64,000 nt of DNA from Octopus vulgaris (lineage: Eukaryota), in the NCBI GenBank assembly GCA_951406725.2, contig OX597824.1, forward strand, positions 26,660,001-26,724,000, read 5' to 3'. This document shows, one piece after another, positions 2,204 through 39,030 of this stretch; within the stretch, counting starts at the first letter, position 1; every line of letters starts with the position of its first letter. The notes beneath the pieces are model-generated. The model was given only the letters and a program-made list of their open reading frames with translations. It made no database searches and was not told where the DNA came from. The translations under genes and the position numbers were made by a program.

Positions 2204-2206
2204 CAT
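2204..2206 (-). CDS. Probable exon 1 (ATG only) of a third alpha-tubulin copy whose remaining exons lie left of the window
   Basis: Minus strand ACAACA-ATG|GTAAAT, same as at 15628-15630 and 34639-34641. Bases 1-2203 align to intron 1 of copy A (13198-15627). Confidence 0.6.
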
Positions 2207-2532
2207 TGTTGTCGCGCTGTTTCTGTACCGTTCAAAGTGGAGTCAATAAACAAGACGGTGGTTTTGCTCTTGGCCTTGCTACAAATAGTAATATTTTTTA
2301 CTCTCCTCCTACTCTTACTCTTATACTACTCCGTGTTAGCCAATTGTGATCGTATGTTCGAAGACAGTCTCAAACTGAAGGGTGTGATTTTGAGGGGGGT
2401 AATAAATTAATTTTGATTTAATTTTCTTTTTTTCAATTTAACACCCCTATAACTACAAATGGCTAAACTTAACGGAATGGTTCACATATTGAAATAATTT
2501 CATCAACTAATAAACCGAAAGAACAGAGAGGT

Positions 2533-4463
2533 TGTTTTATTATTACCCACAAGGGGCGAACATAGATGGGACAATACAATCGGGAAAATGAATAATGAAT
2601 TATGAAGTTTGTACAATGTGGTGTAATGCCCACTCGATCCCCGAAATCGAGCGGTTACATTTCGTCATTTGTTTTTTATTCGTCAACAATATTTTCCAAA
2701 GAAAACATTTTTATACATTTTCAACATACATTTCAAAAATTTTACAAAGTTCAACATTTTTTTTTTCCAGAATTTAAAGTTCTTTTTATCATTTCCAAAT
2801 TAAAGTTTTCACAATACCTTTTCTTTTATATATACTCCATTATCTCTACCAAATCTGAGTAAACTTCCATCATTCGTGGCCACCTTGTAAGTCGGCATTT
2901 CATATGTTTTGACACGTTCTTGCCAGCTGCCTCGATGAACGCCTCGGCGTCGTTCTCGTGGACGAGTGCACCTGTTTCTTTCCATTCGGTGCCCATCCTG
3001 ACCCACGTATATCCATTTGTTACGTTTATTAAATCTTCCATCTCCTCACAGTGCCTGTGATGGATCAACGTTCCATAGTATTTGAATTTTCTATTCGTAC
3101 CTACGTTTTCTCTAGTTTTTCTCTTAGGACTTACTTCCTCTTTTTTCTCCTCCCTCGGTTTCTCTCTTTCTCTCTTTTTGCTTTCTCTTCTTTCTTTTTC
3201 CTTCTCTTGTCTTTTTGGCTCTTTGTCTGCCGTCTCTCTACCCTGTGCCTTGAATTCCTTTCCTGTTGTTTCTTTTCCTTTTTGCATACCATCTTTTCCT
3301 TTCTCTTGGTTCTGTTCCTTCTCTTGTTCTTTTCCTGCTTTTTCTCTTTCCTTTAATGTACTTTCCTTTTCTTTCTCTTGCTTCTGTCTTGGCTCCTTCT
3401 CCACTACTTCTGCACCCTGTGAATTTTGCTCCTTTTCTACTATCTTCTTCCCTTTGTTTTCATTTTCCTTCAGTGCGCTGTTACTTCCCTTCTCTTGTTG
3501 TTTCTCCGTTATTTCCTTTTCCTTGTTTTCGCTGTTCTTTCCTTCGTGTTCGTTTTCCTTCTCTCCACTTTGTGTCTCTTTTTGCTCCGCTGTGAATTCA
3601 TACAGCGGGCATTCCTTTTTATGTGCCCTCTTGATCCGCACAGGTAGCAATTCGGTTTTCTGCCTTCCACTATTACACTAATTGTTTTCTCGTTTTCTAT
3701 TTCTATTTGGAAGGGAAATCTTTCGATGTCTTCCATTGTGGCCATCAGCCACAACTCTACTCCGAATCCCTTCCAATTTACAACGTTCGTCTCCTTAATT
3801 GACCCTATTTCTACTTCCTCTTTTGCTGCCCCAATAATGGCTGTTACCAGCATTTCTGTTTTAATATCTGGGGGCACCTTTGGGACTCTTACCCGTACCC
3901 CTCGTCTTCCTTTATACGTCGGCCACATGGTGAAATTTTCCGCTTTCAGGACAGTGGAAGCCAATGAGGCCGCCACTTCCTTTGTTGCGCATCTCACCTC
4001 CACCGTACCATATTTCTTTCCTCTGTCTACAAAAGTCGCTTTTTTCATGATGTCCCCCAGACATTTCTCTATTTCTTCAATCGTCACTCTCACCAGTTTT
4101 CTCGTGTTTCTATCTTGCGTTCTATACGTTATCGTCTTGTTATTTCTCTCTTCTATTGTTTCCACAGGCGGGACCAGCTTCACGCTGTCACCCTCCCTTT
4201 TGACGAACTTCTCGTATTCCTTCAATTGTTCTTTTCTAAAGAACACTTCTTTTATTCTAAGTGACTCGTCACTTTTTGTTGTGGCGACCCCCGCGTAAGT
4301 CTCCATGACTTGAGGGTCGACACACCTTCTATAAAAGGTTCAAACACGCAGCGGCAAACGCCTCGCGCGATTCAATTTTTTTCCAATTTTTAACAGTTTA
4401 TTTTTCCAATTTTCACATACAAAATAACTCACAACACACATGGGTAGATTTCCTCCAGGTGTT
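2533..4463 (-). mobile_element. ORF1-only non-LTR retroelement (HAL1-like), 1931 bp, with 18-bp TSD
   Basis: TSD ccgaaagaacagagaggt at 2515-2532 and 4464-4481. Empty site present in paralogous copies near 15945 and 34955. Single gag-like ORF, no RT, SINE-like 3' tail. Confidence 0.85.
2826..4306 (-). pseudogene. L1/Tx1-type ORF1-like protein (about 493 aa) with CCHC zinc knuckle, broken by a 1-nt frameshift
   Basis: ORFs 3509-4306 and 2826-3650 join into CYLCGSRGHIKKEC (CX2CX4HX4C) if one base is added to the T run at 3616-3620. A K/E-rich linker and an approximately 90-aa C-terminal domain follow. Confidence 0.8.
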
Positions 4464-4963
4464 CCGAAAGAACAGAGAGGTGGGAGTTGAAGTTCTTGCA
4501 TACGGAGCACCAAAAATTTAAATCTGAAAAGGAACAACGAAGATACTATTTGAACGTGATAATTTTTCAAATGAAATTGGATTATTTTGCTTTTATTCTT
4601 TAGTGGTGAAAGGTATGTTTAGAAGATTTAATTAAATTCACAAACTGAGAATGACGTTTTAGTTTCAATCTCCATCTGAAGTCACTTCTGTTTATTTAAT
4701 GCCCTGAAGTAACTTCAGTTTAATGAGTCCGCTGTAGTCATCGAAAAAAATGAATATTCAAGCCTCCTATTTTTCTTCCTTCTACAAAATTAACTTGGGA
4801 ATGTTATGAGTTATGATTTTTTAAAAATTGATCACCAAATACAGAAGCAAGCATAATCATACAACTCCGGACACATAATGTCTTTTAATGTTTTCCTACA
4901 TCCCTTCACATCTAGTCCGAAATCCCAGGAGAGTTGCTACAACTTTTGTCCGTCTGAATCATT

Positions 4964-6040: not shown

Positions 6041-7315
6041 AAAATTTTCCAACCAAATTTTCGAAAAAACCTTTTGAAAATTTTCCTCAAAAATCTTTGA
6101 AAATTTTTCCTAAACATTTTGGAAAACCCCGTGTATCTCCGGCAAACTTCGGATATTTCCGGTAAATTCCGGCAATCTCCACCAATTTCCGGTGATCTCG
6201 GACAATTTGCGGCAAACTCCGGTAATCTACGGCAATTTCCGGCAATATCTGGTTATTTCCGGCAACCCCCGACAATTTCCGGCAATCTCCAGTAATTGCC
6301 GGCAATCTCTGGCAATTTCCGGTAATTTCCGGCAATCTCCGGCAATTTCCGATAATTTCCGGCTATCTCCAGCAATGTCTGGTAATTAACGACAATTTCC
6401 GGCAATCTTCGGCAATCTCCGGCAATCTTTTTTTCAAAAATTTTATAAAATTTTGCAAAAAAATTTACAATTTTCCTCAAAAATTTTTTTGGAAAATTGT
6501 ACTCAAAAATATTTTAAAATTTTCCTCAAAAACTTTTGAAAACCTTTGCCAAAAATCAAAAAATTTTGAAAACTATCGTCAATTTTTCAAAATTTTTCCC
6601 AAAAGGTTTTGAAAAATTTTTTGACAAGTTTCCCAAAAAATTTTTGAAAAATTTTTGAAAATTTTCCCCTAAAATTTAAGGAAAATTTTTTGAAAATTTT
6701 CGTCAAAAATTTTTGAAAATGTACCCAATAATTTTTGAAAATTTTTCGCAAAACTTTCTGAAAACCCCGGGTATCTACGGCAAACTTCGCATATCTCCGG
6801 TAAACTCCGGTAATCTCCGGCAAGTTCCGGTAATCTCCGACAAATTCGGCAATCTTCTGCAATTTCTGCCAATGTCCGGCAATTTACGGCAATCTCCGGC
6901 AATCTCTGGCAAACTCCGATAATCTCCGGCAATATCCAGTAATTTCTGGCAATACTCGGCAATCTCTGCCAATTTCCGGCAGTTTCCGATAATTTCCCGC
7001 AATATCCGGCAATCTTTTCCCAAAAATTTTCGAAAAATCTTTTGAAAATTGTCCTCAAGAAGTTTTGAAAATTCTCCAAAAGTTTTTGAAAAATTTCCCA
7101 AAAATTTTTAAAAAATGTTTTTGAAAATTTTCCTCTAATGTGCTTGAAAATTTTCCTAAAAATCTTTGAAAATTTTCCTAAAAAACTTTTGGAAATTCTC
7201 AAAATTTTTGAAAATTTTTCTCAAAAATTTTATAAAATTTTCCAAAATTTTTGAAAATTTTCCTCAAAAATTTTTGAAAATTTTTCCCAAAAATTTTTGA
7301 AAAAGTTTTTGAAAA
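6041..7315. repeat. Composite minisatellite: GC-rich 10-bp (TCCGGCAATY)n blocks alternating with AT-rich AAAATTTT blocks
   Basis: Blocks: AT 6041-6120, GC 6121-6425, AT 6426-6760, GC 6761-7012, AT 7013-7315. Absent from the paralogous site at about 17070-17118. Confidence 0.9.
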
Positions 7316-7344
7316 TTAGTAAATCTGCCACAAAAGATGAGTTG

Positions 7345-8234: not shown

Positions 8235-8540
8235 GGGGTCGATAAAATAAGTACCAGTTACGCACTGGGGTCGATGTAATCGACTTAATCCTTTTGTCTG
8301 TCCTTGTTTGTCCTCTTTGTGTTTAGGCCCTTGTGGGTAGTAAAGAAATAGGTATTTCGTCTGTCGCTACGTTCTGAGTTCACATTCCGCCGAGGTCGAC
8401 TTTGTTTTTCATCCTTTCGGGATCGATTAAATAAGTACCAGTTACGCACTGAGGTCGATATAATCGACTTAATCCCTTTGTCTGTCCTTGTTTGTCCCCC
8501 CCCTGTGTGTAGCGCCTTGTGGGTAGTAAAGAAATAAGAA
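8235..8540 (+). mobile_element. SINE family 1, tandem partial dimer
   Basis: Two units ending ...CCCTTGTGGGTAGTAAAGAAATA; the second begins GGTATTTCGTCTG. Confidence 0.85.
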
Positions 8541-10610: not shown

Positions 10611-11734
10611 TTAGTATTCTTCAATCTCATCTCCCGTTTCAGCTGTGTCAATACCAACTTCTTCATAATCTTTTTCCAGCGCAGCCAAATCTTCGCGCGC
10701 TTCTGTGAACTCTCCTTCCTCCATACCTTCACCAACATACCAATGAACAAAAGCTCGCTTGGCATACATTAAGTCAAATTTATAATTTAGACGGGCCCAA
10801 GCGTCAGCAATAGCTGTCGTATTGTTCAGCATACACACGGCCCGTTGGACCTCAGCCATGTCTCCCCCAGGGATAACAGTTGGGCGTTGGGAATTGATAC
10901 CAACTTTAAACCCTGTTGGGCACCAATCCACAAACTGAATGTCTTTCTTCATTTTAATTGCTGCAATAGCAGCGTTAACATCTTTCGAGACCACATCGCC
11001 TCGGTACAACAGACAACAAGCCATGTACTTCCCACGGCGAGGGTCACATTTAACCATCTGATTACCGGTTTCAAAGCACGCGTTTGTTATTTCAGAAACA
11101 TTTAACTGCTCGTGGTACGCTTTCTCAACCGATATTATTGGTGCATACGAAATCAATGGGAAATGAATACGTGGATAAGGTACAAGGTTGGTTTGAAACT
11201 CGGTTAAATCAACATTAAGGGACCCATCAAACCTTAGAGAAGCAGTAATAGAGCTCACTACCTGAGCAATTGGACGATTAAGGTTGATGTATCTTGGATA
11301 CCCAACATCTAAATGCTTTTTACAGATATCATAAATTGCTTCATTGTCGACCATGAAAGCGCAGTCACAATGCTCTAGAGTGGTATGAGTGGTTAAGACG
11401 GAATTGTACGGTTCCACTACAGCTGTAGAAATTCGTGGTGCCGGATAGACTGAAAATTGAAGCTTTGTCTTTTTACCAAAGTCAACACTCAGGCGCTCCA
11501 TTAGCAGAGACGTGAAACCAGAACCGGTGCCGCCACCGAAACTATGAAAAATCAAGAAGCCCTGGAGGCCAGAGCATTGTTCAGTTACTTTATGAATTTG
11601 GTCACAGACCGAATCAATGATTTCCTTGCCAACGGTATAGTGACCCCTGGCGTAATTGTTGGCTGCATCCTCTTTACCACTGATGAGTTGGTTCGGGTGA
11701 AATAACTGGTTGTATTTTCCAACGCGTATTTCAT
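10611..11734 (-). CDS. Alpha-tubulin copy A, exon 3 (last exon)
   Basis: [38 protein letters not shown] and C-terminal EEY. Acceptor ttttccAG at 11736-11735, phase 1; TAA at 10613-10611. Confidence 0.97.
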
Positions 11735-12222
11735 CTGGAAAATAAGATTTTGAGCAATAATATATCAAACTGGCAATATAAAAATTAAAAGATTTTTCTT
11801 ATATTAGAGGAGTATGAAATGTAGAGATTCTCAGACAGTTACTTGCTTTATCAGTTCAACAAAGTACTTCCATGTACGACATTCCTCAGAATATACTGCT
11901 AACAATACTTACATTCAAATACCGGATACATAAACACTTACTATTCCACTCACATTTAACCGATTTTATAGTCGACACATTTTACTGCCGTGATCAGTTC
12001 TGTTGTACAACAGAATTTTGAAATATTGTCCAATATTCAAGAAAACGGCGTTCGGAAATATAGCAGTAAAAAAGGAACCACTGCTTCATCACAAATCTTC
12101 GAGTTTTTTTTCCAACACAGAAAAACATAGAAGATTGATTAACCAGAACATTAAATGCGCGACAGGGCAATTCCTTGTTTAATTTATTTTTGTAAATACA
12201 ATTTTGAAACGTTTATACTTAC

Positions 12223-12439
12223 CGATAACTGAGGGCTCCAAATCGACGAATATGGCTCTGGGGACACGTTTCCCAGAGCCTATCTCATGAAAGAACGTAC
12301 TAGACGAATCATTAACACCGGAAGATTCAAATGATACTTGACCATTTTGTTGGATTCCATGTTCAAGGCAATAGAGTTCCCAACAAGCGTTACCTATTTG
12401 GACGCCTGCTTGTCCTATGTGAACGCTGATACATTCTCT
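12223..12439 (-). CDS. Alpha-tubulin copy A, exon 2
   Basis: [29 protein letters not shown]...[14 protein letters not shown]. Acceptor ttttcAG at 12441-12440; donor GTAAGT at 12222. Confidence 0.96.
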
Positions 12440-13685
12440 CTGAAAAAAAAGTTGTATAATAGAATTATTTTACAAGCTAGAGAAATCGGACAAAAGTGGG
12501 AGTTGAGCCCAAAAGGGAGCATCGCCGTGGTGTACTGCCTGTTAGAAATAGCTGTCAAATTCCTTCCGATCATACCCTATTGATTAACAAAATGTTTATA
12601 TCACGCGAACTCTAAATTTGGAAAATATAGAAATGGTAACTGAAGCGCATTTTTAACACAAATTTTCGCCAACAAGGTTTCGTGAGGTTTCAAGAGCCAT
12701 GCAGAGCTACATAAGAACCTTTAAAATGGTCTTTTTGGAGAAATTAAAATAACTGATATGAGTTGTCAGAACTTAACCATTATACCACAGGAGATAATAG
12801 CACAATATTTATAAATTCAAATCTAATTAAGCACACAAATATTTTAAAACAACCTTCATGTTTAATGTAAGTATTCCGTTCTACTTCATTTCAACACCAC
12901 TTTACATTGAGACAGTTTCTTCCAGTATAGCTGTGGGTCAATCTAGTAAACGGAAATGGATTTAGCGGTGGCCATGTGGACGCCCGTCAAATAAACTGTA
13001 AGGGAAAGTGCACAATGACAATATTTTTTTTAAATGTGCGCTCCCTTACGAAAACTATATCCATTAAGCAAATGACCTTCCCTAAATTCTTTAAAAAATA
13101 ATCTAACATTTTAGACAATTATTGCAGTTCTGAGTATATAAAACAAATTTGGCTGGAGCCAAATGAGTAAGCCAAAATAAGATAAATCTGCCTCTTCAGT
13201 TCTCCAGAATCACATTTGAAAACAGACTCGTACATCAATATTCATCGTTAGACACCAGAAAGACCAAAAACTAAAAGAAATTAAATACCTCGGTCAAATG
13301 AAAGGCGATCAAAGGAAAACAATACATATGAAAATAACGAAACTCGACTAAAGATAAAATATTCTCTACAGTTTCTTTACGATCTGCTGGGGTATCTATT
13401 CCTGAGAGATTTACACACGAGGTAGTTAAAGTGGGATTGAAATTAATCACTCCTTTTACACTATTTTAGGCATTTTTTCAAACTTGAAAATTATCAAATT
13501 AGCGTGTGAAAAAAATTTACTTGTAATCCAGCAGAGAAAAGAATATATATTGTTAAAAATTAGCTAGTTATTTTATTAACTTCAATCACAATTAGGTTAA
13601 CGTAGAGGAAAACATTCTTGAACACAAACTATCTCCGGATTAGGTTTCAGACTTAACTACACTGGCCAATTTTTACGCCTAAATA

Positions 13686-13919
13686 CATATTTCTTTACTA
13701 ACCACAAGGGGCTAAACACAGAGGACACACAAGGACAGACAAATGGATCAAGTCGATTATATCGAATCCAGTGAATAACTGGTACTTAATTTATCGACCC
13801 CGAAAGGATGAAAGGCAAAGTCGACCCCGACGGAATGTGAACTCAGAATGTAACGGCAGACGAAATACGGCTACGCATTTCGCCAGGCGTGCTATCGTTT
13901 CTGCCAGCTCGCCACTTCA
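13686..13919 (-). mobile_element. Full-length SINE family 1 in intron 1 of copy A, 14-bp TSD
   Basis: TSD tttacgcctaaata at 13672-13685 and 13920-13933; empty site near 480-495. Confidence 0.9.
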
Positions 13920-15627
13920 TTTACGCCTAAATATAATGTTGTAATACATAATGATGCAGTACTTACAATGGAATGATTTCAAACAGATGAGAAAATAACG
14001 AGAAATCAAAAATTACTCACTTTATCCCCTTAATTAGAGAGCCTAAGTTGGTCACAAAAGACACCGAAATAACCACTTACAAGTTACATATTTCGATAGC
14101 GTGATAACCGAAGTTCCGTTAACACGTTGGCTCCCAGACGTCCTGCCGGTGCTGTTAGCGACCTACCGGCCGGTGGGTTTTTTTTCTCTTTGTCATGGGC
14201 TTTCTTAAAGCTGGTATGTTCCGATTTCTTTGATTTGTACTTTTGCTAAGAGAATTTAATAGACTTTATATTTTCGTTTTTCTTCTGATTTCACCATGAA
14301 GAAAAAGATTCAATGACAAAATTGTCTCAAACAAAAATAGTTAATTCTTTTGAAAAAAAAATTATCAATAGAAATAAAAAAATATTTTACTTGCCATGGA
14401 AATCAAAATAGTTTTTTCTGAAAAAAAGAATTTCGAGATCTTCCAATAGAAGAGCTAAAATTTTTAATTGACACGGTGTGGTATCTAAGATGCGATATGA
14501 ACTAGGGTACCAAACGACTCTCCGGTGGGACATGGGTATCTAACACTGCAATCCTTGCCTCAGTATAGTGTAAAAATATTACGCCGCTCATGTCAAAATT
14601 AGGATATCAAATTGGGACCCTGGGATAAAACGTAAAAATGAGTCTAGAGACCCGACGTGTTAACAGTAAAAGCTGTACGGCAGACACGGAAAACATACCC
14701 AGAAAATATTGCAGTTTCTCAATAGAGACTATATTAAATAAATGAAAATATTAGTAAATTATGACAAACAATTTAAATTCAAAATTGTATTTAATATTTT
14801 TTTATATAGTTCTAAATACAATTTTGTGAAGACTAGAAAATGGTTAATGTAGACCGAATTAAAATTAAATGCAGTTTTGTAATACAAAAATTCTTAATGG
14901 GTTAATTATAAGCAAGGGATGCGAATAGAGGGGTAATTTTTCTAATGAAGAGGGATTGTATAAGTCTATATTCCTTCGTTGTAAATTTTGAAGAGTTTTT
15001 CTCTAAGTTCTCACGGTTGCCGTTATGTAGCTCTAGATCAAATCACTGATTTTAAAAAATTCTTAACGACATACTAACTAAAAATCAAAGAGGTTTTTTT
15101 TTATGTAAATGCTTTTAGAGTTTTCTATACGTTCGTTCTTCATGTAATGTCGTATGTTGTTACATGGCAACTTTTGGCTGTCACATATTGCTTTGAAATC
15201 TAGATGAAAATTCTATTTTAAAAATTCAATATTTGTTGCTATTATGCAAAAGGGTCGAAAGTCCCAACCGCTGCTTTTTCAAAAGGAAAAAAGAAGTTTC
15301 ATCATTCCACAGGAAAACCGTTGTACTACACTTTGACAATTTTCGATATCTTGCCGTCTGAAGCAACTAGAGATCCTGATATTTCGACCAAAAGAACCGG
15401 CTATTGCAAATAAAAATAAATACTGAATAAAACGTATTTGGCTAAATTTAGACGTACGACAGTTTAACATAATAGCAACTAAATAAACATTTCGAAAGCA
15501 AGAAAAGAATTTCACTAATAAATATGCACAAAATATTTTGTAAATGTGAATAAAGGTTATTATATTCAAAACTGGATTTCCTATAACTTTGTAGAGACAG
15601 ACTGGAAATAAACCGTTGCAAATTTAC

Positions 15628-15630
15628 CAT
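15628..15630 (-). CDS. Alpha-tubulin copy A, probable exon 1 (ATG only)
   Basis: Animal alpha-tubulins commonly have an intron directly after the ATG. Context acaacaATG|GTAAAT; the 200 bp upstream are nearly invariant across the three copies. Confidence 0.65.
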
Positions 15631-15835: not shown

Positions 15836-16458
15836 TTTGATTTAATTTTTTTTTTTCAATTTAACACCCCTATAACTACAAATGGCTAAACTTAACGGAA
15901 TGGTTCACATATTGAAATAATTTCACCAACTAATAAACTGAAAGAACAGAGAAGTGGTAGTTGAAGTTCTTGCGTACGGAGCACCAAAAATTTAAATCTG
16001 AAAAGGAACAACGAAGATGCTATTTGAACGCGATAATTTTTCAAATGAAATTGGATTATTTTGCTTTTATTCTTCAGTGGTGAAAGGTATATTTAGAAGA
16101 TTAATTAAATTCACAAACTGAGAATGATGTTTTAGTTTCAATCTCCATCTAAAGTCACATCTGTTTATTGAATGCCCTGAAGTAACTTCAGTCTAATGAG
16201 TCCGCTGTAGTCATAGAAAAAAAATGAATATTCAAGCCTCCTATTTTTCTTCCTTCTACAAAATTAGATTGGGACTGTTATATATAATTTCTAACTTTTA
16301 TTAGTTATGATTTTTTTTTAAATTGATCACCAAATACAGAAGCAAGCATAATCATACAACTCCGGACACATAATGTCTTTTAATATTTTCCTACATCCCT
16401 TCACATCTAGTCCGAAATCCCAGGAGAGTTGCTACAACTTTTGTCCGTCTAAATCATT

Positions 16459-19711: not shown

Positions 19712-21552
19712 TCAATAGAACCTCGCACCATTGTACGAATAATGTGCTGTCTCGAAGTACTAGTGGAAATGGGCAGTATGAGCTCGCAAACGCACTCCCA
19801 ACAAGCGAAACACATTGTTAGCTTTCACAGGCTGTTTTTCCCCCGTTTGGAGGTGAAGCGTTTATATTTTGTGTAGGTTGTCCTACACAAAATGGATGAC
19901 GATACATTTTACGAGCTCTGGGAGAGCGAGGATGAGGCGGACTACGCAAGTTATTCCGTAGAAAGCACGGATGATTATGCGGCCGCGGCACTAAGATGGA
20001 TGGAATGTTACAACATCAAGCCTGAGGCAGTCAAGAAGTTCTGGTCATTTCTTCAAGGGGAGGAAGACAGCGTGAGGCTAAGTCCCCCCAAGGAGGTGAT
20101 GGAAGGAATTAAGAGAAGAACAAATGTTTATAGGACGCTATCTTTGAAGACTAGCAAAATAGAGAGAGCGTCAATGGAAAAGGCATTAAAGCCTAATATG
20201 TATAAATTGGCGTACGTTAAGGGCGGAAGAAGGTTTGGAACGGTGGAGGCGCAGTTTGTGACTGAGAGCGATGCCAAAATAGACTCGGCGACCACCCTGC
20301 AGACGAGTGGATTAGATCTTTTGCCATCATAGCTCGGCAAAAGAACGACGGAAATAATGATAAACAGGTTCGACCCGGAAATCAAACCGATGTGGCTCCT
20401 GGCTGCGACCTTCGCCAACATAAAAGAAGAGGTGGCACTATTGGAGTTGGAAGAAAAATGTATCCAGAACTGGTGTGGCAGGGGCGTAAGAGCAACACTC
20501 CAGGCCACACCAGCAGATATTAAACAGCGCTTTCCTTACGGTAAAAAAATAGTTTTTCTGTAAATGACAGCAGTTATACACCTCTCAGATGCCTTCGCTA
20601 AGCAGAATAATGACTTTGCCTCTCATCAACCCCCGACAACCTCTCTCACCGACCTCCGATAATCTTTCTCGCCGACCTCCGAAAATCTCTCTTGCCAACC
20701 TCCCAACAATCTCTCCCTCCTCCAGCTGATAGTTTTTGTACTTTTTCATGGCGGAAAATACACCTTTTGTGGCAGTTATAATGAAATTGCTTTCTTATAT
20801 CAGAGTAATAAGGCGTTTCAATAGAGCATCTTCACCCCCGGGAATTACCAGGTACACCAGTAGACGGGCTTCTAGTTTCCGTCTACAAAATTCATGGACA
20901 AGGCTTTGATCGGCCCGAGGCTATAAGTAGAGGAGATTTGCCCAAGGCGCAACGTGGTGAGATTGAACCCAGAACCATGTGGTTGAGAAGCAAGCCTCTT
21001 TATTTTATGAAATTGGCCATCAAGGCCGTACATAGAGGGAATAGCACAAGGTGGGGACAAAAATAAACGAATTAATATAATGAAAGATGAAATGAAGCCG
21101 TTCGGCCACCTCCTTCGAGCGACTTCCTTGAACCTGTTAATACAACATTTATTAAAACACTGTGGAGGCGCAATGGCCCAGTGGTTAGGGCGGCGGACTC
21201 GCAGTTGGAGGATCGCGGTTTCGATTCCCAGACCGGGCGTTGTGAGTGTTTATTGAACGAAAGCACCTAAAGCTCCACGAGGCTCCGGCAGGGGATGGTG
21301 GTGATCCCTGCTGTACTCTTTCACCACAACTTTCTCTCGCTCTTTCTTCCTGTTTCTGTTGTACCTGTATTTCAAAAGGCCATCCTTCCCACGCATTGTG
21401 TAACGCTGAATCTCCCCGAAAGTTACGTTAAGCGTACACGTGTCTGTGGAGTGCTCAGCTACTTACACGTTAATTTCACGAGCAGGCTGTTCCGTTGATC
21501 GGACCAACCGGAACCCTCGTCGTCGTCGTAACCGACGGAGTGCTTCCATCAT
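18695..21552 (+). repeat. Local direct repeat (18695-19457 and 20775-21552), each ending in a family 3 SINE (tail type b)
   Basis: Offset 2080 bp. The first 386 bp are nearly identical. SINEs at 19082-19457 and 21162-21552. Confidence 0.9.
19892..20545 (+). pseudogene. N-terminal fragment of a second, diverged ORF1-like protein
   Basis: Collinear with the 4306 ORF: DSVRLSPP/DSVKLVPP, YRT, GRRFGTVE/GKKYGTVE, KEEV, NWCGRGV/NWKGFGV, DI..RFP. In-frame TAG at 20330-20332. Confidence 0.8.
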
Positions 21553-25890: not shown

Positions 25891-25994
25891 CCTTTCTACT
25901 ATAGTCTCAAGGCCTGGAATTTGCCGGGGGGAAAGTATAGTCGATTACATCGACTCCGAAAGGATGAAAGGCAAAGTCAACCTCGGCGGAATTC

Positions 25995-26220
25995 GTGTAG
26001 CTTCGTTGGATTGCCTCAAGTTCTGAGATTAATTTGACACTGGTTGGTGACCATAGCTGAGAGCAATTGTCAAAGTGGCTTAGGAAAAGTGTCCTCCAGA
26101 GAACCATCATGGTTTCCTGATTTCTTGTTCCAAAAGTTCTAAGAATCCATCCGGTCAGCCGCCTGCATTTCATTGCCAATTTAGCAACATGCACATGGAA
26201 GTATGTATCGTTACTCATGT
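25995..26220 (-). mobile_element. CR1-group LINE ORF2 fragment
   Basis: GWILRTF...HFDNCSQLWSP...LEAIQR, homologous to the 43860-44885 element. Confidence 0.8.
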
Positions 26221-26464
26221 ATGTATGTATGTATGTATGTATGTATGTATGTATGTATGTATGTATGTATGTATGTATGTATGTATGTATGTATGTATGT
26301 ATGTATGTATGTATGTATGTATTTTTATGTGTTCAATTACAATAAAGAAGTTATATTAATCTGATAGCTAACTCTACACATTTGCAGAGTAAAAATGTAT
26401 TATTCTTATACAAGAATACTACTCAGAGTGCTATCGAAATTTCGTCCAGCTAAGCCATCATACG

Positions 26465-27385
26465 CTACTCTAAGCAGTAGCATATAAGATGGAGATTGTC
26501 GTGGATCAACCTGCCCGGGATAGGGCACTTTGCGCTTCCTCTACAAGTCTGTTCACGACACGCGCCAACCTTTTCGCTAGCACTTTGGCCAAAATCTTTA
26601 ACTCTGTGTTCAACAGTGTTAGGAGTCTGAAAATTCCTATTTCGTCCCCCTTGCTCGGGTCCTTCCTGATCAACGCACCAGCCCTCCGCTCGCAGGCTTA
26701 GGAATTCTCCCATTCTGCTACCAATTGGTGTAGACGCTGGCCAGTAGGCGCCCGAACAAGACTGGCATACTGTTATAAAATTCATAGGGTAGACCATCGA
26801 GACCCGGCGACTTCTCCTCGGAGCATTCGCCTAGCATCTCGATCACCTCCTTGGCCGTGATTGGGCCTTCACAGCACTCAGCTTCTCATGCCGATAGACG
26901 CGGGTCACCAGACAGGAAGCCTCTAAGGGCCTCACCATGATTGAGAGCCCCTCCCTCACACATCTCGTCCTCGACCGAGCTCCCATTGTCATCAATAAGA
27001 GACCTTATTGTGGCATCATTCCCACGCTGGATTTCTACCATATGGGCCCATCCGGCAACATTAATTAGCTCACGGCCCAATGCGCGCGCTTTAGTCCGAA
27101 CTCTGCAACCCTTATGTTTGGCTTTGAGATGACGGTCCAAGTCCGTTCTCGCTGCCAAAATGTGGGATGCAGAGCCCAACCTAAACGCCTTCTCTAGGTC
27201 CTTAACTAGTTACCCTTCTATTCTAGCCTTATCTAGTCTTAGTTAGTAGCTAAACCTAACAGACTCGAAACGAATGGCTCTCTTGAGGGCGAACCACCAC
27301 TTGTTATTAACTACAGCGCCGGTTAACGCCCTCTGTACTAGTTCCTCAATCCGGCTACAATATCTCTCGCAAGTCAAAATAGGTT
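26465..27385 (-). mobile_element. Decayed L1/Tx1-clade LINE ORF2 fragment
   Basis: Minus strand FRLLTLLNTELKILAKVLAKRL and IPGRLIHDNLHLI, RT motifs typical of L1/Tx1. Confidence 0.85.
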
Positions 27386-27849
27386 TGTTTAGCTTCCCGT
27401 GCCTCAGGTTTCAAGGGGTGGGAAATTTTGTTTTTGCAGGGGCTTGTGTGCGCAGGGGTTGGATCTTTCCGTTGTTTCGTGGGAGTGGGTGGGAGTGTTT
27501 GTCTTTGCGGGGACTGTTCTGTGTGCGTGCTTGTGTGTTGTCTGGGGGAGTTGTTTAGCTTCCAGTACGATCGGAAGCAAGCTTCTTACCACACACTTTT
27601 GTACTATACATATATCTATCAGTGGCTGATATATACTTAGATACATATATATGTTTGTACACACATATACATATGTATAGTGTGGACCTAAAGTCAAGCA
27701 CCAATAAGTTCAATACGCTCCAGAATTGTAAAAGTCGTGTTTCAATATTCGTAAAATTGAATAAAATAAATAAAATAAGATGAATGCTCACATACTTGTA
27801 CATGATGAGCAAAATGAATAATAGTAATAATAGCCATGAAATTTTGGGG

Positions 27850-28335
27850 GAGGTGTTCGTCGATTACATCACCCCCACCCCCACAGTGTTTTACTGGTAC
27901 TTAATTTATCGACCCCGAAAGAATGGGAGGAAAAGTCGATCTTGGGGGCTAAACACAGAGAAGACAAACAAGGACAGACAAACGGATTAAGTTGATTATA
28001 TCGACCCCAGTCCGTAACTAGTACTTATTTAATCGACCCCGAAAGGATGAAAGGCAAAGTCGACCTCGGCGGAATTTGAACTCGGAACGTAACGGCAGAC
28101 GAAATACCTATTTCTTTACTACCCACAAGGGACTGAACACAAAGGGGACAAACAAGGACAGACAAACGGATTAAGCCGATTATATCGACCCCAGTACGTA
28201 ACTGGTACTTATTTAATCGACCCCGAATGGATGAAAGGCAAAGTGTACCTCGGCGGAATTTGAACTCAGAACGTAGCGGCACACGAAATACCGCTCAGTA
28301 TTTCGCCCGGCGTGTTAACGATTCTGCCAGCTCTA
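27850..28335 (-). mobile_element. SINE family 1 multimer
   Basis: Two to three tandem units with the same internal junction as at 8350. Confidence 0.85.
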
Positions 28336-29185
28336 TACCTTGATAAATAATAATAATACTAATAACGTAAAATAAATAAAATGTTATATGTTTTGGTGCA
28401 TGACTTTTGGTCCGCCCTCTATATACACGCACGCATTATATATAAGCCTCCGACGTTGCAGGGTGCGCTAAAATGTTTGCGTAAATATCTTATATTGTGA
28501 TGTAAATACATGCGTCTCATTACGAGTCAACATTCATGATACAAAGAATACAATGACTAGAATTTTTGAATGAATTTACTGATGAGATGTTCAATATTGT
28601 GTGACCTGAATCAGAACTATTTTGGGACAGAGTAAAGAAACACACACCCTGCCGAGGTTTCCCTTTTTGTTTTGCATCTAACTGGAGTTTCTTATATAAC
28701 TTTCTAAACTTTGCACAAAGCCAGCAACTTTGAGTAGATGGGGCAATCGATTACAGATTGGTATTTTATTTTATCGACCCTGAAATGAAAAGCAATATCG
28801 GCTTCGTTGGAATTTGAACGCAGAATGTGAAGAACCGGAAGAAACGACACCAGTCCTTTTATCGACGTGCTAATGATTCTGCCAGATCGCCAATTTTATT
28901 TTAATAATCAATCACTAAATTTTTCAGTGGCAGCCAACCCCTTCTCACCACAATCTGACGCGTTTATTTATTTATACAAAACATGAATGAAAGCAATTAA
29001 CCGCCATTCTTAAAGGGCAGCCATCGACTTTTTCTAGCCAAACGTTTTCTTTTTAAACTATTTAAACGCTGTTCATAGATTCTTGTGCTTCGAGATCACC
29101 CACAAAAATATAAGAAATATATCCACAGGCGAACACACAAAGTACATCACTAAATGATTTTTATAAAAAGATTTATGAACAACCA

Positions 29186-30802: not shown

Positions 30803-31926
30803 TTAATATTCTTCTATCTCATCTTCCGTTTCAGCTGAATCAATACCAACTTCTTCATAATCTTTCTCCAACGCAGCCAAATCTTCGCGCGCTTCCGAAA
30901 ACTCACCTTCCTCCATACCTTCACCAACATACCAATGAACAAAAGCTCGCTTGGCATACATTAAGTCAAATTTACGATTCAGACGGGCCCAAGCGTCAGC
31001 AATAGCTGTCGTATTGCTCAGCGAGCACACGGCCCGTTGGACCTTGGCCATATCTCCTCCAGGGACAACGGTTGGGGATTGGGAATTGATACCAACTTTA
31101 AACCCTGTTGGGCACCAATCCACAAACTTGATGGATTTTTTATTTTTAATTGCTGCAATAGCAACGTTAACATCTTTCGAGACCACATCGCCTCGGTACA
31201 ACATACAACAAGCCATGTACTTCCCACGGTGAGGGTCACATTTAACCATCTGATTACCGGTTTCAAAGCACGCGTTTGTTATTTCAGAAACATTTAACTG
31301 CTCGTGGTACGCTTTCTCAACCGATATTATTGGTGCATACGAAATCAATGGGAAATGAATACGTGGATAAGGTACAAGGTTGGTTTGAAACTCGGTTAAA
31401 TCGACATTAAGGGACCCATCAAACCTTAGAGAAGCAGTAATAGAGCTCACTACCTGAGCAATCGGACGATTAAGGTTGATGTATCTTGGATACCCAACAT
31501 CTAAATGCTTTTTACAGATATCATAAATTGCTTCATTGTCGACCATGAAAGCGCAGTCACAATGCTCTAGAGTGGTATGAGTGGTTAAGACGGAATTGTA
31601 CGGTTCTACTACAGCTGTAGAAATTCGTGGTGCCGGATAGACTGAAAATTGAAGCTTTGTCTTTTTACCAAAGTCAACACTCAGGCGCTCCATTAGCAGA
31701 GACGTAAAACCAGAACCGGTGCCGCCACCGAAACTATGAAAAATCAAGAAGCCCTGGAGGCCAGAGCATTGTTCAGTTACTTTATGAATTTGGTCACAGA
31801 CCGAATCAATGATTTCCTTGCCAACGGTATAGTGACCCCTGGCGTAATTGTTGGCTGCATCCTCTTTACCACTGATGAGTTGGTTCGGGTGAAATAACCG
31901 GCTGTATTTTCCAACGCGTATTTCAT
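30803..31926 (-). CDS. Alpha-tubulin copy B, exon 3
   Basis: Same motifs and splice acceptor as copy A (offset 20192); intact to EEY-stop. Confidence 0.97.
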
Positions 31927-32414
31927 CTGGAAAATAAGATTTTGAGCAATAATATATCAAACTGGCAATATAAAAATCAAAAGAGTTTTCTTATATTAGA
32001 GGAGTATGAAATGTAGAGATTCTCAAACAGTTACTTGCTTTATCAGTTCAACAAAATACTTCCATGTACGACATTCCTCAGAATATACTGCTAACAATAT
32101 TTACATTCAAATACCGGATACATAAACACTTACTATTCAACTCACATTTAACCGATTTTATAGTCGACACATTTTACTGCCGTGATCAGTTCTGTTGTAC
32201 AACAGAATTTTGAAATATTTTCCAATATTCAAGAAAACGGCGTTCGGAAATATAGCAGTAAAAAAGGAACCACTGCTTCATCACAAATCTTCGAGTTTTT
32301 TTTCCAACACAGAAAAACATAGAAGATTGATTAACCAGAACATTAAATGCGCGACAGGGCAATTCCTTGTTTAATTTATTTTTGTAAATACAATTTTGAA
32401 ACGTTTATACTTAC

Positions 32415-32631
32415 CGATAACTGAGGGCTCCAAATCGACGAATATGGCTCTGGGGACACGTTTCCCAGAGCCTATCTCATGAAAGAACGTGCTACACGAA
32501 TTATTTGCACCGGAAGATTCAAATGATACTTGACCATTTTGTTGGATTCCATGTTCAAGGCAATAGAGCTCCCAACAGGCGTTACCTATTTGGACGCCTG
32601 CTTGTCCTATGTGAACGCTGATACATTCTCT
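32415..32631 (-). CDS. Alpha-tubulin copy B, exon 2
   Basis: [12 protein letters not shown]...EPSVI with canonical AG/GT boundaries. Confidence 0.96.
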
Positions 32632-34638
32632 CTGAAAAAAAAGTTGTATAATAGAATTATTTTAAAAGCTAGAGAAATCGGACAAAAGTGGGAGTTGAGC
32701 CCAAAAGGGAGCATTGCCGTGGTGTCCTGCCTGTTAGAAATAGTCGAATTCCTTCCGATCATACCCTATTGATTAACAAAATGTTTATATCACGCGAACT
32801 CTGAATTTGGAAAAGATAGAAATGGTAACTGAAACGCATTTTTAACACAAATTTTCGCCAACAAGGTTTCGTGAGGTTTCAACAAGAGCCATGCAGAGCT
32901 ACATAAGAACCTTTAAAATGTTTTTGGAGAAATGAAAATAACTGCAATAAGTTGTCTGAGAGCTAAACCATTATACCACAAGAGATAATAGCACAAGATT
33001 TATAAATTCAAATCTAATTAAGCACACAAATATTTTAAAACAACCTTCATGTTTAATGTAAGTATTCCGTTCTACTTCATTTCAACACCACTTTACATCG
33101 AGACAGTTTCTTCCAGTATAGCTGTGGGTCAATCTAGTAAACGGAAATGGATTTAGCGGTGGCCATGTGGACGCCCGTCAAATAAACTGTAAGGGAAAGT
33201 GCACGATGACAATATTTTTTTTAATGTGCGCTCCCTTACGAAAACTATATCAGTTAAGTAAATGGCCTTCCATAAATTCTTTAAAAAATAATCTAACACT
33301 TTAGACAATTATTGCAGTTCTGAGTATATAAAACAAATTTGGCTGGAGCCAAATGAGTAAACCAAAATAAGATAAATCTGCCTCTTCAGTTCTCCAGAAT
33401 CCCATTCGAAAACAGACTCGTACATCAATATTTATCGTTAGACACCAGAAAGATCAAAAACTAAAAGAAATTAAATACCTCGGTCAAATGAAAGGCGATC
33501 AAAGGAAAACGATACACATGAAAATAAAACTCGACTAAAGCTAAAATATTCTCCACAGTTTCTTTACGATCTGCTGGGGTAGCTCTTCCCGAGAGATTTA
33601 TACACGAAGCAGTTAAAGTAGGATTGAAATTGGTCACTCCTTTTACACTATTTTAGACATTTTTTGAAACCCGACGTGTTAACAGTAAAAGCTATACGGC
33701 AGACACGGAAAACATACCCAGAAAATATTGCAGTTTCACAATAGAGACTATATTAAGTAAATGAAAATATTAGTAAATTCTGACAAACGATTTAAATTCA
33801 AAATTGTATTTAATATTTTTTTATACAGTGCTAAATACAATTTTGTGAAGATTAGAAGATGGTTAGTGTAGACCGAATTGAAATTAAATGCAGTTTTTTT
33901 AATACAAAAATTGTTAATGGGTTAATTATAAGCAAGGGATGCGAATAGAGGGGTAATGTTTCCAATGAAGAGGGATTGTATAAGTCTATATTCCTTCGTT
34001 GTAAATTTTGAAGAGTTTTTCTCTAAGTTTTCACGGTCACCGTTATGTAGCTCTAGACAAAATCACTGATTTTAAAAAATTCTTAACGACATACTAACTA
34101 AAAATCAAAGGTTTTTTTTCTAAATGCTTTTAAAGTTTTCTATACGTTTGTTTCTCATGTAATGTAGTATGCCGTTACATGGCAACTTTTGGCTGTCACA
34201 TGTTGCTTTCAAATCTAGATGAAAATTCAATTTTAAAAATTCAATATTTGTCGCTATTATGCAAAAGGGTCGAAAGTCCCAAACGCTGCTTTTTCAGAAG
34301 GAAAAAAGTTTCACCATTCCACAGAAAAACCGTTGTACTGCACTTTGACAATTTTCGATATCTTGCCATCTGAAGCAACTAGAGATCCTGTTATTTCGAC
34401 CAAAAGAACCGGCTATTGCAAATAAAAATAAATACTGAATAAAACGTATTTGGCTAAATTTAGACGTACGACAGTTTAACATAATAGCAACCTATAAACA
34501 TTGCGAAAGCAAGAAAAGAATTTCACTAATAAATATGCACAAAATATTTTGTAAATGTGAATAAAGGTTATTATATTCAAAACTGGATTTCCCATAAATT
34601 TGGAGAGGCAGACTAGAAATAAACCGTAGCAAATTTAC

Positions 34639-34641
34639 CAT
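34639..34641 (-). CDS. Alpha-tubulin copy B, probable exon 1 (ATG only)
   Basis: acaacaATG|GTAAAT as in the other two copies. Confidence 0.65.
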
Positions 34642-35471
34642 TGTTGTCGCGCTGTTTCTGTACCGTTCAAAGTGGAGTCAATAAACAAGACGGTGGTTTT
34701 GCTCTTGGCCTTGCTACAAATAGTAATATTTTTTACTCTCCTCCTACTCTTACTCTTATACTACTCCGTGTTAGCCAATTGTGATCGTATGTTCGAAGAC
34801 AGTCTCAAACTGAAGGGTGTGATTTTGAGGGGGGTAATAAATTAATTTTGATTTAATTTTCTTTTTTTCAATTTAACACCCCTATAACTACAAATGGCTA
34901 AGCTTAACGGAATGGTTCACATATTGAAATAATTTCATCAACTAATAAACCGAAAGAACAGAGAGGTGGGAGTTGAAGTTCTTGCATACGGAGCACCACA
35001 AATTTAAATCTAAAAAGGAACAACGAAGATGCTATTTGAACGCGATAATTTTTCATTTGAAATTGGATTATTTTGCTTTTATTCTTCAGTGGCGAAGGGT
35101 ATGTTTAGAAGATTAATTAAATTCACAAACTGAGAATGATGTTTTAGTTTCAATCTGCAGCTGAAGTCATTTCTGTTTATTTAATGCCCTGAAGTAATTT
35201 CAGTCTAATGAGTTCGCGGTAGTCATCGAAAAAAGAATGAATATTCCAGCCTCCAATATATTCTTCCTTCTACAAAATTAAATTGGGACTGTTATATATA
35301 ATTTCTATCCTTTATGAGTTATGATTTTTAAAAAATTGCTCACCAAATACAGAAGCAAGCATAATCATACAACTCCGGACACATAATGTCTTTTAATATT
35401 TTCCTACATCCCTTCACATCTAGTCCGAAATCCCAGGAGAGTTGCTACAACATTTGTCCGTCTGAATCAGT

Positions 35472-35860: not shown

Positions 35861-36760
35861 AAGAAGAAAGCTTGTTAAAGAAAAGGAAGGAAAGTAAAGA
35901 GGAAGAAACACGGCATGATATTCCAACAACATCAAGAAGGGAAGCCAACGTTAAAAATCAAGTGGGACTACAGGAACAAGTAACTATAAAAGAACCGAAA
36001 AATAAATGACATATTGTGACTTACACGAAAAGCACGGAGATTGAAAAGGAAATAACGAAAATGAAGTCGGTAATAAGAGTGAAGCTAACAATAGAATACT
36101 ATCCAGAGAGTAAAGGCGGCGAGCTGGCAGAAACGTTAGCACGCCGGGCGAAATGCGTAGCCGTATTTCGTCTGACATTACGTTCCGAGTTCATATTCCG
36201 CCGAGGTCGACTTTACCTTTCATCCTTTCGGGGTCGATAAATTAAGTGCCAGTTACGCACTGGGGTCGATGTAATCGACTTAATACCTATGTCTGTCCTT
36301 GTTTGTCCCCTCTATGTTTAGCCCCTTGTGGGTAGTAAAGAAATAACTATCCAGAGAGTACCAAGGCAATTGTAATTGACAAGGAGAGATGCGCAAGACT
36401 AAGAGAATGCTTCGGAAATAGGATAGACCCAGCAGGAGTACGCGTGGAGTTCAACGTCTTGCCATTTTATAGATTATGAGGACCTACTGGCTTACATAAA
36501 ATGGTGAAAAAAGTAAGTAAATGTTTGAAACCCTGATGATTGTAACACACATGCAAAAAAGGAAAAAATAAGAGGAAAAGAATGATAAAAACATTAAATG
36601 ATACTGCTTGCGAGTGGGGAGCATGCAGCCATTTCATCTTCATCATTATTGTTCATCCTTCATTCGTTCCTTCTGTGTTTTTTTTTGTCCCCGCTGTGGT
36701 ATTCTGTCTGTTCTTGTGCTGTCCCCTCTGTGTATAAGCCTGAGTGCTTAAATAAAGAAA
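35861..36760 (+). mobile_element. Probable 5'-truncated ORF1-only element (3' end), interrupted by a SINE
   Basis: A K/E-rich frame continues in phase once the SINE and one TSD are removed. Ends GTCCCCTCTGTGTATAAGCC...AATAAAGAAA, similar to the family 1 tail. Confidence 0.5.
36113..36345 (+). mobile_element. Full-length SINE family 1, 15-bp TSD
   Basis: TSD actatccagagagta at 36098-36112 and 36346-36360. Confidence 0.92.
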
Positions 36761-36813: not shown

Positions 36814-37045
36814 TATTTCTTTACTATCCACAAGGGGCTAAACACAGAGAGGACGAACAAGGACAGACAAACGGATTAAGTCGATCATATCGACCCCAGT
36901 GCGTAACTGTACTTATTTAATCGACCCCGAAAGGATGAAAGGCAAAGTCAACCTCGGCGGAATTTGAACTCAGAACGTAACGGCAGACGAAATACCGCTA
37001 AGCATTTCGCCCGGCGCGCTAACGTTTCTGCCAGCTCGCCGCCTT
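36814..37045 (-). mobile_element. Full-length SINE family 1
   Basis: Reverse complement of 36113-36345. Confidence 0.9.
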
Positions 37046-37640
37046 CTATTCATCCGAAGCCATCCAGCAGTTCTTGAGATATCGTGTCCACGGACAAACA
37101 AACAAATACGACTGAAAAACAATACCTCTGACTTCGCTAAGAGAATGGGTCATGGTTACATACCTGGCTGGAATCAGTAAAAATATTGCATTGTATAAAT
37201 TTACTGCCCTTTCGGAGAATTCTTCCACGAACTGTTTACGCAATTCTTTCATTCCTATTTGAAACATTACATACATAAATGATTTAACATTGAGCAATAT
37301 TCTTGTTTTATTTCTAACACACTGCACGATTTTTCATTCCTTACAAAATATATTGCAAACATTTACAGTTGTGTACGTGGCCTCCCAGCATTGATGTCCT
37401 CGCAGAACGAGTAATTTGACAGTTTTTCTCACTGATAACCAGAATAATAGAAAAGATTCCCGTCTTATAGAACGCTTCTCTCTTTACAGGATACCATCCT
37501 TAGATTACTGTCTTCGATAATTTCTAAGCCAACAACCCATTCTTTTATCTTTCTCTTCTTACATATTCACCATTTCTTTCTTTCCATCACGGCTATATTT
37601 ATCCCTATCTCTGTTTACTTTTCTTCCCGTCTATTTCTCT

Positions 37641-37699
<59 letters not shown>

Positions 37700-38158
37700 A
37701 CCCTCTTCTCTTTCTTCCTTCATCTGTATACCGCCACCATCATCGCAAATCAAGCAACACGACAAATAGTTATCGATGAGATAGATCAATTATTAACACG
37801 ACAATCTGACAGTTGGTGTGATAAATCGGATATTGATGTGATAATCTAAATATTTGTTGTCATAAAGCGGGTATTCATATGATAAATTGAGTGTCGGAAT
37901 GGTAATCATATGATATACACGAAAATAAAAGCGAACAAACTTACAAATAAATATACATGTGTTACTAAAATGCATGAAATCGTTTGATAAATAGTTGTAC
38001 AGTGATAAAATCGAATGTAACGGTTGCAATTTCGTGAGATAAAGGCATCTTTGTTTTTAAATTCACTATCAGAAATGGAAGATATTTGAAAGACCAATTC
38101 TTTAAATGATCTGCTGAGAAGTGAATGAACAGCAGATATGTATATATATATGCACACA

Positions 38159-38391
38159 AGGCGGCGAGCTGGCAGAAACGTTAGCATGCCGGGCGAAATC
38201 TGTAGCCATATTTCGTCTGCCGTTACGTTCTGAGTTCAAATTACGCCGAGGTCGACTTTACCTTTCATCCTTTTGGGGTCGATAAATTTAGTACCAGTTA
38301 CTCACTGAGGTCGATATAATCGACTTAATCCGTCTGTCTGTCCTTGTTTGTCTCCTCTGTGCTTAGCCCCTTGTGGGTAGTAAAGAAATAG
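38159..38391 (+). mobile_element. Full-length SINE family 1
   Basis: GGCGGCGAGCTGGCAGAA head through GTAAAGAAATA tail. Confidence 0.9.
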
Positions 38392-38664
38392 GTGTATATG
38401 CATACGACACACATACATATGCATTAATGTTTGTTTTTATGTCGAGTTACAGTACTTTCTACTTACTATAGACATAACGCCTGAAACTTGGTGGGAAAAG
38501 ATTAAAGGATGAAAGGCAAAATGGACATCGGTGGCATTTGAACTCAGAACGGACGAAATACTGCCGAACATTTTGTCCGGCGTGTCAAGGATTCTGATAA
38601 AAAAAAAAGGGGGGGGGGGTCAACATTAAACAGAATTACTCTATATTTTCTTTACAGAATGAAG

Positions 38665-39030
38665 TGGCGAAATGTTTAGCGGAATTTCGTCTGCTGCTAC
38701 GTTCTGAGTTCCAATTCCGCCGAGGTTGACTTTGCTTTTCATCCTTTCGGGGTCGATAAATTAAGTACCAGTTACGCACTGGGGTCGATGTAATCGACTT
38801 AATCCGTTTGTCTGTCCTTGTTTGTCCCCTCTGTGTTTAGCCCCTTGTGGGTAGTAAAGAAATAGGAATTTCATCTGTCTTTACGTTCTGAGTTCAAATT
38901 CCGCCGAAGTCGACTTTGCCTTTCATCCTTTCGGGGTCGATAAATTAAGTACCACTTGCGTACTGAGGTCGATCTAATCGACTGGCACCCTCCCCAGAAA
39001 TTTCAGGCCTTGTGCCTATAGTAGAAAATA
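38665..39030 (+). mobile_element. SINE family 1 dimer; second unit has an alternative tail
   Basis: Second unit ends AAATTTCAGGCCTTGTGCCTATAGTAGAAA, as at 56490-56522. Confidence 0.8.

Follow-up and report, generated by a model that had tools for sequence, protein, structure and literature searches.

The window, a 64,000-nt stretch of Octopus vulgaris DNA, carries on its reverse strand a real, young and multi-copy LINE derivative that encodes ORF1 only (2533..4463, 1,931 bp in its entirety), is missing from both paralogs of its insertion site and is present in multiple copies in public sequencing runs. We consider it probable that this octopus non-LTR element, whose ORF1 is of the L1 clade, is copied in trans by an autonomous, likely Tx1-type LINE that reads its tail. 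As the element encodes a predicted RNA-binding protein but no reverse transcriptase (RT) of its own, it likely borrows this enzyme from a related full-length LINE.

Insertion site and layout of the element

The element is bracketed by an 18-bp target site duplication (TSD), CCGAAAGAACAGAGAGGT, which matches exactly between 2515..2532, on the element's 3′ side, and 4464..4481, on its 5′ side. The original prediction had described a 1.9-kb insertion with an 18-bp TSD, absent from both tubulin paralogs and about 330 bp from the third tubulin ATG, and each part of that description held: the exact 18-mers enclose 1,931 bp, each paralog contains the target sequence once, and the distance from the 3′ end of the element to the start codon downstream measures 327 bp. 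In the first paralog the empty site (34950..34967) is exact and its flanks are joined, and in the second (15938..15955) the single copy has two mismatches; both empty sites are paralogs, not alleles. Over the 200 bp to the left of the insertion site, identity with the paralog near 34950 reaches 99.5%, which argues that the insertion is recent. The start codon itself (2204..2206, reverse strand, an ATG followed by an intron) is read as that of alpha-tubulin by paralogy with 15630 and 34641, where later exons encode alpha-tubulin; exon 2 of the copy that starts at 2206 falls outside the window. An insertion at this distance from the tubulin start may affect that paralog. The window as a whole holds three tandem alpha-tubulin paralogs on the reverse strand (2206, 10611–15630 and 30806–34641), with flanks up to 99.5% identical.

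Read on the reverse strand, the element begins with a 5′ UTR of 157 nt (4307..4463), which may contain an internal promoter and in which tail-to-head joints land at 4457–4461. ORF1 follows (2826..4306, running from 4306 to the stop at 2826–2828), and directly behind its stop lies a 3′ UTR of 293 nt (2533..2825), the stop being bridged by a contig of public run X1 that covers 2622–3796. One segment of the 3′ UTR (2625..2661, more broadly about 2590–2662) is common to further repeat families, with about 5-fold depth and the loose ends of as many as 10 contigs at 2662; a possible hairpin at 2625..2661 was not significant (z −1.8; 11 of 200 shuffles). Reading of the open frames and Pfam revealed neither an endonuclease nor an RT domain in the element, and an Rfam search gave no real match and hence no known ribozyme. 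The tail and the 5′ UTR fold no better than their shuffles, and the likeness of the 5′ UTR to L001, one of the autonomous LINEs described below, is not significant (10 of 500 shuffles).

In the window copy, ORF1 is split into frames of 265 and 283 aa at a run of five T (3616..3620, forward strand), within the zinc knuckle. Contigs from all four public runs examined carry one T more, placed after 3615, at 86–100% of depth (62.2/62.2, 156.3/156.3, 32.3/37.5 and 488.7/512.6), so the ORF of the family is a single frame of 493 codons. The O. vulgaris protein CAI9726493 reads through the knuckle in frame (98% over query residues 188–229). The base missing from the window copy is either an assembly error or a real mutation. 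The ORF of about 493 aa that had been proposed is thus correct for the family form and not for the frameshifted window copy, the homopolymer that had been marked for a read check proved to be the site of the difference, and the expected 3′ UTR of about 290 bp, the 5′ UTR and the lack of endonuclease and RT agree with the layout above.

The ORF1 protein and its L1-clade relatives

AlphaFold modeling on a 78-row alignment (mean pLDDT 93 for residues 1–229) predicts two RRM-like folds ahead of a CCHC knuckle in the ORF1 protein, namely an RRM-like domain at about aa 47–134 (3905..4168; this and all further ORF1 features are on the reverse strand) and an RRM/ferredoxin-like domain at about aa 133–217 (3656..3910), the latter from AlphaFold, Foldseek and VIA-align. 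The best VIA-align match, which concerns the first domain, is the La RRM (Z 9.2, rmsd 2.6, 82 residues aligned), and all 12 Foldseek matches at E ≤ 0.001 are RRM-containing chains with tandem-RRM proteins at the top (IMP3 RRM12, E 3e-5); Pfam did not recognize an RRM in the window protein. The knuckle (CX2CX4HX4C, 3609..3649), which the frameshift splits in the window copy, matches zf-CCHC at E 0.0067, and the match clears the Pfam cut-off in in-frame relatives (for example P0034, E 1.5e-5). It is followed by a charged linker of 165 aa with 48% K+E (3099..3593) and by a C-terminal domain (2829..3098) that is kept in sibling subfamilies and is predicted, with moderate confidence, to be ferredoxin-like (pLDDT 77, two of five models above 70). 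The fold of this last domain matches ferredoxin-like structures with a best Z of 7.8, within background; it has no Atlas match, and a comparison of profiles showed no link between it and the C-terminal domain that the autonomous relatives carry. No match to Transposase_22 at E 0.05 was obtained for any of the 78 proteins in the alignment. The domain order first read from the sequence (N-terminal domain, CCHC, K/E-rich linker, C-terminal domain) is recovered by this analysis, and of the domains for which a structural check had been suggested, the RRMs are predicted by AlphaFold and the knuckle is supported by Pfam in in-frame relatives.

Variation among copies gives modest support to constraint on the protein, as a pattern of substitutions and indels and not as a dN/dS estimate. 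Eleven of the 12 indel rows shown (of 32) fall in the UTRs (23% of the element's length), and the twelfth is the window's own frameshift. The 40 substitution rows shown (of 175) include 33 coding changes, 13 of them synonymous (14 counting codon context). Synonymous changes account for 8 of the 13 substitutions shown in the RRM-knuckle part (binomial p 0.002–0.012, by expected fraction), and over the whole ORF their excess is weak (14 of 33 shown; p 0.002–0.05, by expected fraction). These signs of coding constraint, together with ZCCHC3-like features in Atlas (score 0.89, a lead only), would also suit retrocopies of a domesticated, ORF1-derived host gene of the L1TD1 kind. We hold this origin to be very improbable, because the element has no poly(A) tract, has a tail in common with a SINE, forms tail-to-head joints and is accompanied by many divergent paralogous families.

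A phmmer search with the window ORF1 returned 359 matches at E ≤ 0.001, the named homologs being from O. vulgaris, O. sinensis, O. bimaculoides and Argonauta hians, and none of the 36 homologs scanned held endonuclease or RT families (for one of them, a WD40 fusion, 5 of 18 families are listed). A distant homolog, P0211 (27% identity to the window ORF1, E 9e-19), lies on animal-type contigs within the bacterial MAG record G001. It precedes an ORF2 of 1,155 aa with endonuclease, RT and zf-RVT domains, and the best PDB match of the G001 ORF2 is human L1 ORF2p (E 5.5e-74), R2 proteins scoring 1e-23 or weaker. As judged by these comparisons, the window ORF1 is homologous to the ORF1 of autonomous L1-clade LINEs. 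Its predicted type I composition (RRM and CCHC) in a non-mammalian L1-clade context is one expected of the Tx1 clade, and RRM/CCHC ORF1s of non-mammalian animals have been reported to fit Tx1 (PMC5203782); the label 'Tx1-type' for those LINEs is one that we infer.

The G001 elements are arranged head to tail: among 73 ORF1 matches, 66 starts are tabulated, and 49 of their 50 spacings measure 6.2–7.0 kb, so none of those units is ORF1-only. In an ORF1 tree of 35 rows, all 6 ORF2-linked rows lie on one side of a 100/99 branch and the window protein, together with 9 of 9 named octopod rows, lies on the other, which makes the G001 elements relatives and not the partner. The window-protein side of this branch also holds several proteins from contigs of 1.0–2.2 kb, including one ORF1 cluster found on four contigs of 1,849–1,930 bp.

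Some further observations concern these and other LINE sequences. The animal-type contigs in the bacterial record (L001–L054) are a contamination of a reference genome set. Their arrays of intact L1-clade LINEs, with a period of 6.4–6.9 kb, form a striking system, in which differing 5′ UTR/ORF1 types sit on ORF2s that are 91–100% identical, with one family at 48%. The window itself contains a second, broken ORF1 relic from the element's own family group (19891–20560, forward strand; 33% identical, E 4e-18) that ends before the knuckle, and a broken L1/Tx1-type ORF2 relic (26468–27401, reverse strand; 31% to the G001 ORF2, E 5e-36) without a 3′ end. RT fragments at about 43880–44800 (forward strand) and 25910–26332 (reverse strand) look CR1/L2-like by their motifs.

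Copies and possible arrays in public sequencing runs

At least half of the sampled element words are present in 20 of the 24 public runs listed (11 studies, 4 organism labels), one of which may be the source of the window itself; no run recorded as RNA is among the listed runs that hold the element. Four runs were examined closely as contigs, three of DNA type (X1, X4 and X18) and one guessed to be RNA (X5). The body of the element exceeds its flanks in depth roughly 8–25-fold, where contig depth is not copy number and rare forms are dropped from contigs.

A single X1 contig of 1,174 nt (depth 62.2) covers 2622–3796 and runs unbranched through ORF1, its stop and the 3′ UTR; it differs from the window by 9 substitutions and 3 gaps, and the flank contigs of the same run have depths of 2.7–5.5. 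Bin depth just past the stop versus quiet parts of the ORF is 61–62 versus 62 in X1, 224–316 versus 153–228 in X4 and 491–500 versus 344 in X18, and in X5 it falls to 3.5–14 versus 32. The level depth across the stop in the three DNA-type runs, together with the stop-bridging contig, shows that the ORF1-only form is dominant and multi-copy. In X4, record 19, which is about 88% alike, covers 2866–3169, and a joint of equal depth (13) links 2866 to position 2675 in the 3′ UTR, so a diverged subfamily likely has an identical layout. Amplification as a unit is evident from the TSD (seen at one copy), the empty sites and the level, high depth across the ORF and UTR.

The same data bear on whether the 1.9-kb copies could be recurrent deletion or splice products of a low-copy, near-identical autonomous LINE and not a self-propagating lineage. 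X5 record 25 (depth 5.84) departs from the element at 8 nt past the stop, about where ORF2 of the autonomous relatives begins; its further 172 letters, like 245 letters of X1 record 3, are unseen, and either record could be an ORF1–ORF2 junction. Against such products stand the X1 contig, which is unbranched at the stop, the level depth in three runs, the dominance of one fixed junction and the subfamily diverged by about 12% that appears to share the layout, and we find this explanation improbable. Word-indexed protein searches, as weak evidence, yielded no longer or fused ORF1–ORF2 proteins, and no loci related to the element were found in metagenome_contigs and viral_contigs.

An internal deletion confined to the window locus, or an artefact of its assembly, would be consistent with the frameshift of this copy and with the finding that no single contig bridges the element and its flank there among the contigs listed for the four public runs. 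It is nevertheless scarcely credible, as one and the same ORF1–UTR junction dominates independent runs and the two TSD copies match exactly. The one-off deletion that had been named as the case against the original prediction is thereby contradicted, and its proposal of a non-autonomous, protein-coding cephalopod family gains support from a form that is multi-copy and ORF1-only in public runs.

Tail-to-head joints of the ORF1-only element were found in two of the four runs, in X4 from 4457 to 2535 (two contigs) and from 4379 to 2532, and in the main contig of X5 from 4461 to 2535. Only 35–43 nt of the upstream tail are visible at these joints, and it may therefore come from any family that has this tail. 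A sibling subfamily (74% over the N-terminal part, with its stop at the same position) includes distinct proteins with consecutive accessions on a single O. vulgaris chromosome (CAI9715245–249 and 251), and further such runs of accessions exist, which suggests arrays; annotation may have filtered RT genes near these proteins. The C-terminal sequence of the siblings matches the loose end of the deepest X5 contig listed (depth 288 versus 32). The target of the window element is one non-repeat site, and target-sequence preference is described as common, not universal, in the Tx1 clade (PMC4494074).

A wider reading would see here an old, diverse octopod clade (Octopus, Argonauta) of ORF1-only Tx1 parasites that lost ORF2 once, diversified its ORF1 under selection, formed HeT-A-like arrays and shared its tail with the SINE or donated it. 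We regard this as conceivable but unlikely, the octopod relatives being known from proteins and the absence of ORF2 there being presumed.

The shared tail, the probable partner LINE and known ORF1-only elements

The 3′ end of the element is AATAATAAAACA, followed by the TSD. This tail (2533..2579, reverse strand), which ends in AATAAA plus 3 nt with no poly(A) tract, is common to an abundant SINE. Depth in X1 at 2557 is about 65 times that of the element body, and the motif at 2540–2557 occurs 9 times in the window at up to 2 mismatches (0 expected), the other 8 occurrences being SINE copies. The SINE is about 245 nt long and non-coding, and its last ~45 nt are those that it has in common with the element (alignment score 53; shuffle maximum 27). 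We read its head as tRNA-like; ARAGORN called no tRNA in the window. Two of the 8 SINE copies have clear TSDs of 14–15 bp, and 3 are directly followed by another SINE body. SINE loci lie at 8300–8540, 13690–13940, 25900–26010, 27850–28350, 36109–36345, 36820–37050, 38158–38390, 38660–39030 and 56364–56520. The window also contains a tandem repeat at 6087–7320 with 10-bp and 11/22-bp periods.

Thirteen SINE cores in the window comprise 7 with the element's tail (tail A), 3 with a second tail and 3 that are unclear. In the second tail, 28 of 31 nt agree with the 3′ end of the G001 LINEs, a likeness that 0 of 500 shuffles reached, and every G001 family examined retains the core motif of this tail, including one at 48% ORF2 identity. 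As the SINE thus shares a tail with L1-clade LINEs, a Tx1-type source is likely for the tail that it has in common with the element. The link to Tx1 as the partner is indirect, since the 3′ UTR of the element showed no match to G001 LINE tails, its score of 24 being attained by 43 of 500 shuffles as well. Among the G001 spacers listed, none matched tail A, which occurs in G001 at control level (9 matches versus 11, all on the large contig C1). Scanning metagenome and viral contigs for the tail pattern gave 0 matches, and no ORF2-bearing element with this tail was found in the metagenome, viral and G001 contigs searched.

That the tail is unlike those of the L1-clade relatives is what a mobile ORF1-only chimera would explain, in which a Tx1-type ORF1 had joined a tail captured from an RTE, Dong/R4 or CR1 element, with the latter supplying the RT. 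Families of RTE, Dong-R4 and CR1 are reported as recently active in O. vulgaris (PMC13282606), and Ceph-SINE tails as RTE-derived (PMC5786205); a search of 8 supplementary files (of 12) of PMC9115989 for the RTE-2_OV sequence yielded no match. A chimera seems quite unlikely to us in view of the other SINE tail, which is L1-clade, the CCTTGTG core present in both tails, the AATAAA close to the end of both the element and the G001 LINEs, neither of which has poly(A), and the tandem arrays, a trait of the L1-clade relatives. Under our preferred reading of trans-copying by a likely Tx1-type LINE, the common tail points to the LINE that partners a very abundant octopus SINE.

Combining these observations, we envisage the following life cycle. 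The element may have arisen by loss of ORF2 from a Tx1-type LINE. Polymerase II would transcribe it, either from a start in its own 5′ UTR or by reading through from a copy upstream, and ORF1p would coat its own RNA in cis via the RRMs and the knuckle, easing access to the ORF2p of the partner; such ORF1 proteins have been proposed to multimerise with the partner's proteins (PMC5786205). The partner's ORF2p would recognise the tail, nick the target and reverse-transcribe the RNA, with staggered nicks during target-primed reverse transcription giving rise to the 18-bp duplication. Tandem joints may come from insertion behind an earlier tail or from template jumping.

In encoding an ORF1 protein without endonuclease or RT, the element conforms to the ORF1-present bipartite non-autonomous LINEs. 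HAL1 carries a 3′ poly(A) tail, and the octopus element differs from it in its fixed tail without poly(A), in residing in a mollusc, in a predicted type I ORF1 (RRM-RRM-CCHC) without a Transposase_22 match and probably in having arisen independently. Membership in HAL1 was rejected on the grounds that the ORF1 is not type II (Transposase_22: coiled coil, one RRM, CTD) and that the tail differs. The earlier label 'HAL1-like' is fair as an analogy in view of the homology between this ORF1 and the ORF1 of L1-clade LINEs, but it does not extend to the ORF1 type or to the tail, which is shared with a SINE. The likeness itself lies in HAL1 being non-autonomous, derived from the L1 clade and equipped with ORF1p only (PMC5753468), and HAL1s arose several times in mammals (PMC5753468).

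ORF1-present non-autonomous LINEs are described from three clades, as HeT-A (Jockey), HAL1 (L1) and Ag-Sponge (CR1) (PMC5786205). HeT-A resembles the octopus element in being ORF1-only and in its head-to-tail arrangement (PMC5786205, PMC10088271), whereas it is Jockey-derived and telomeric, and the octopus copy is internal, beside a tubulin gene, and has a TSD. An origin in the Jockey clade, as for HeT-A, finds no support, the ORF1 homologs being linked to an L1-clade ORF2. Ag-Sponge of Anopheles is likewise an ORF1-present non-autonomous LINE of an invertebrate (PMC5786205) but is derived from CR1, in contrast to the L1/Tx1-type ORF1 of the octopus element. The autonomous G001 LINEs (L001–L013, L044–L054) share with it a homologous ORF1, an AATAAA-terminated 3′ end and tandem arrays, and differ in their ORF2, their tail and their position across the 100/99 branch.

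The ORF1-only design thus has precedents in mammals, flies and mosquitoes, and the octopus case likely arose independently. Thirteen recently active L1-Tx1 families are reported for O. vulgaris, an ORF1-only family going unmentioned in the main text of that report (PMC13282606). A search of the full-text literature found no description of a cephalopod or Tx1-derived ORF1-only case; the element may have a prior unlabelled entry in Repbase, Dfam or the 2026 octopus repeat library. A young, intact, multi-copy Tx1-branch case in a mollusc would add another independent origin of ORF1-only parasites, and the octopus element makes testable why non-autonomous elements keep making ORF1p. As ORF1-only elements have no RT, pipelines annotate them as 'uncharacterised genes'; proteins of the O. 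vulgaris sibling subfamily (P0177, P0294–P0297, P0059 and P0151–P0156) are annotated as uncharacterised genes.
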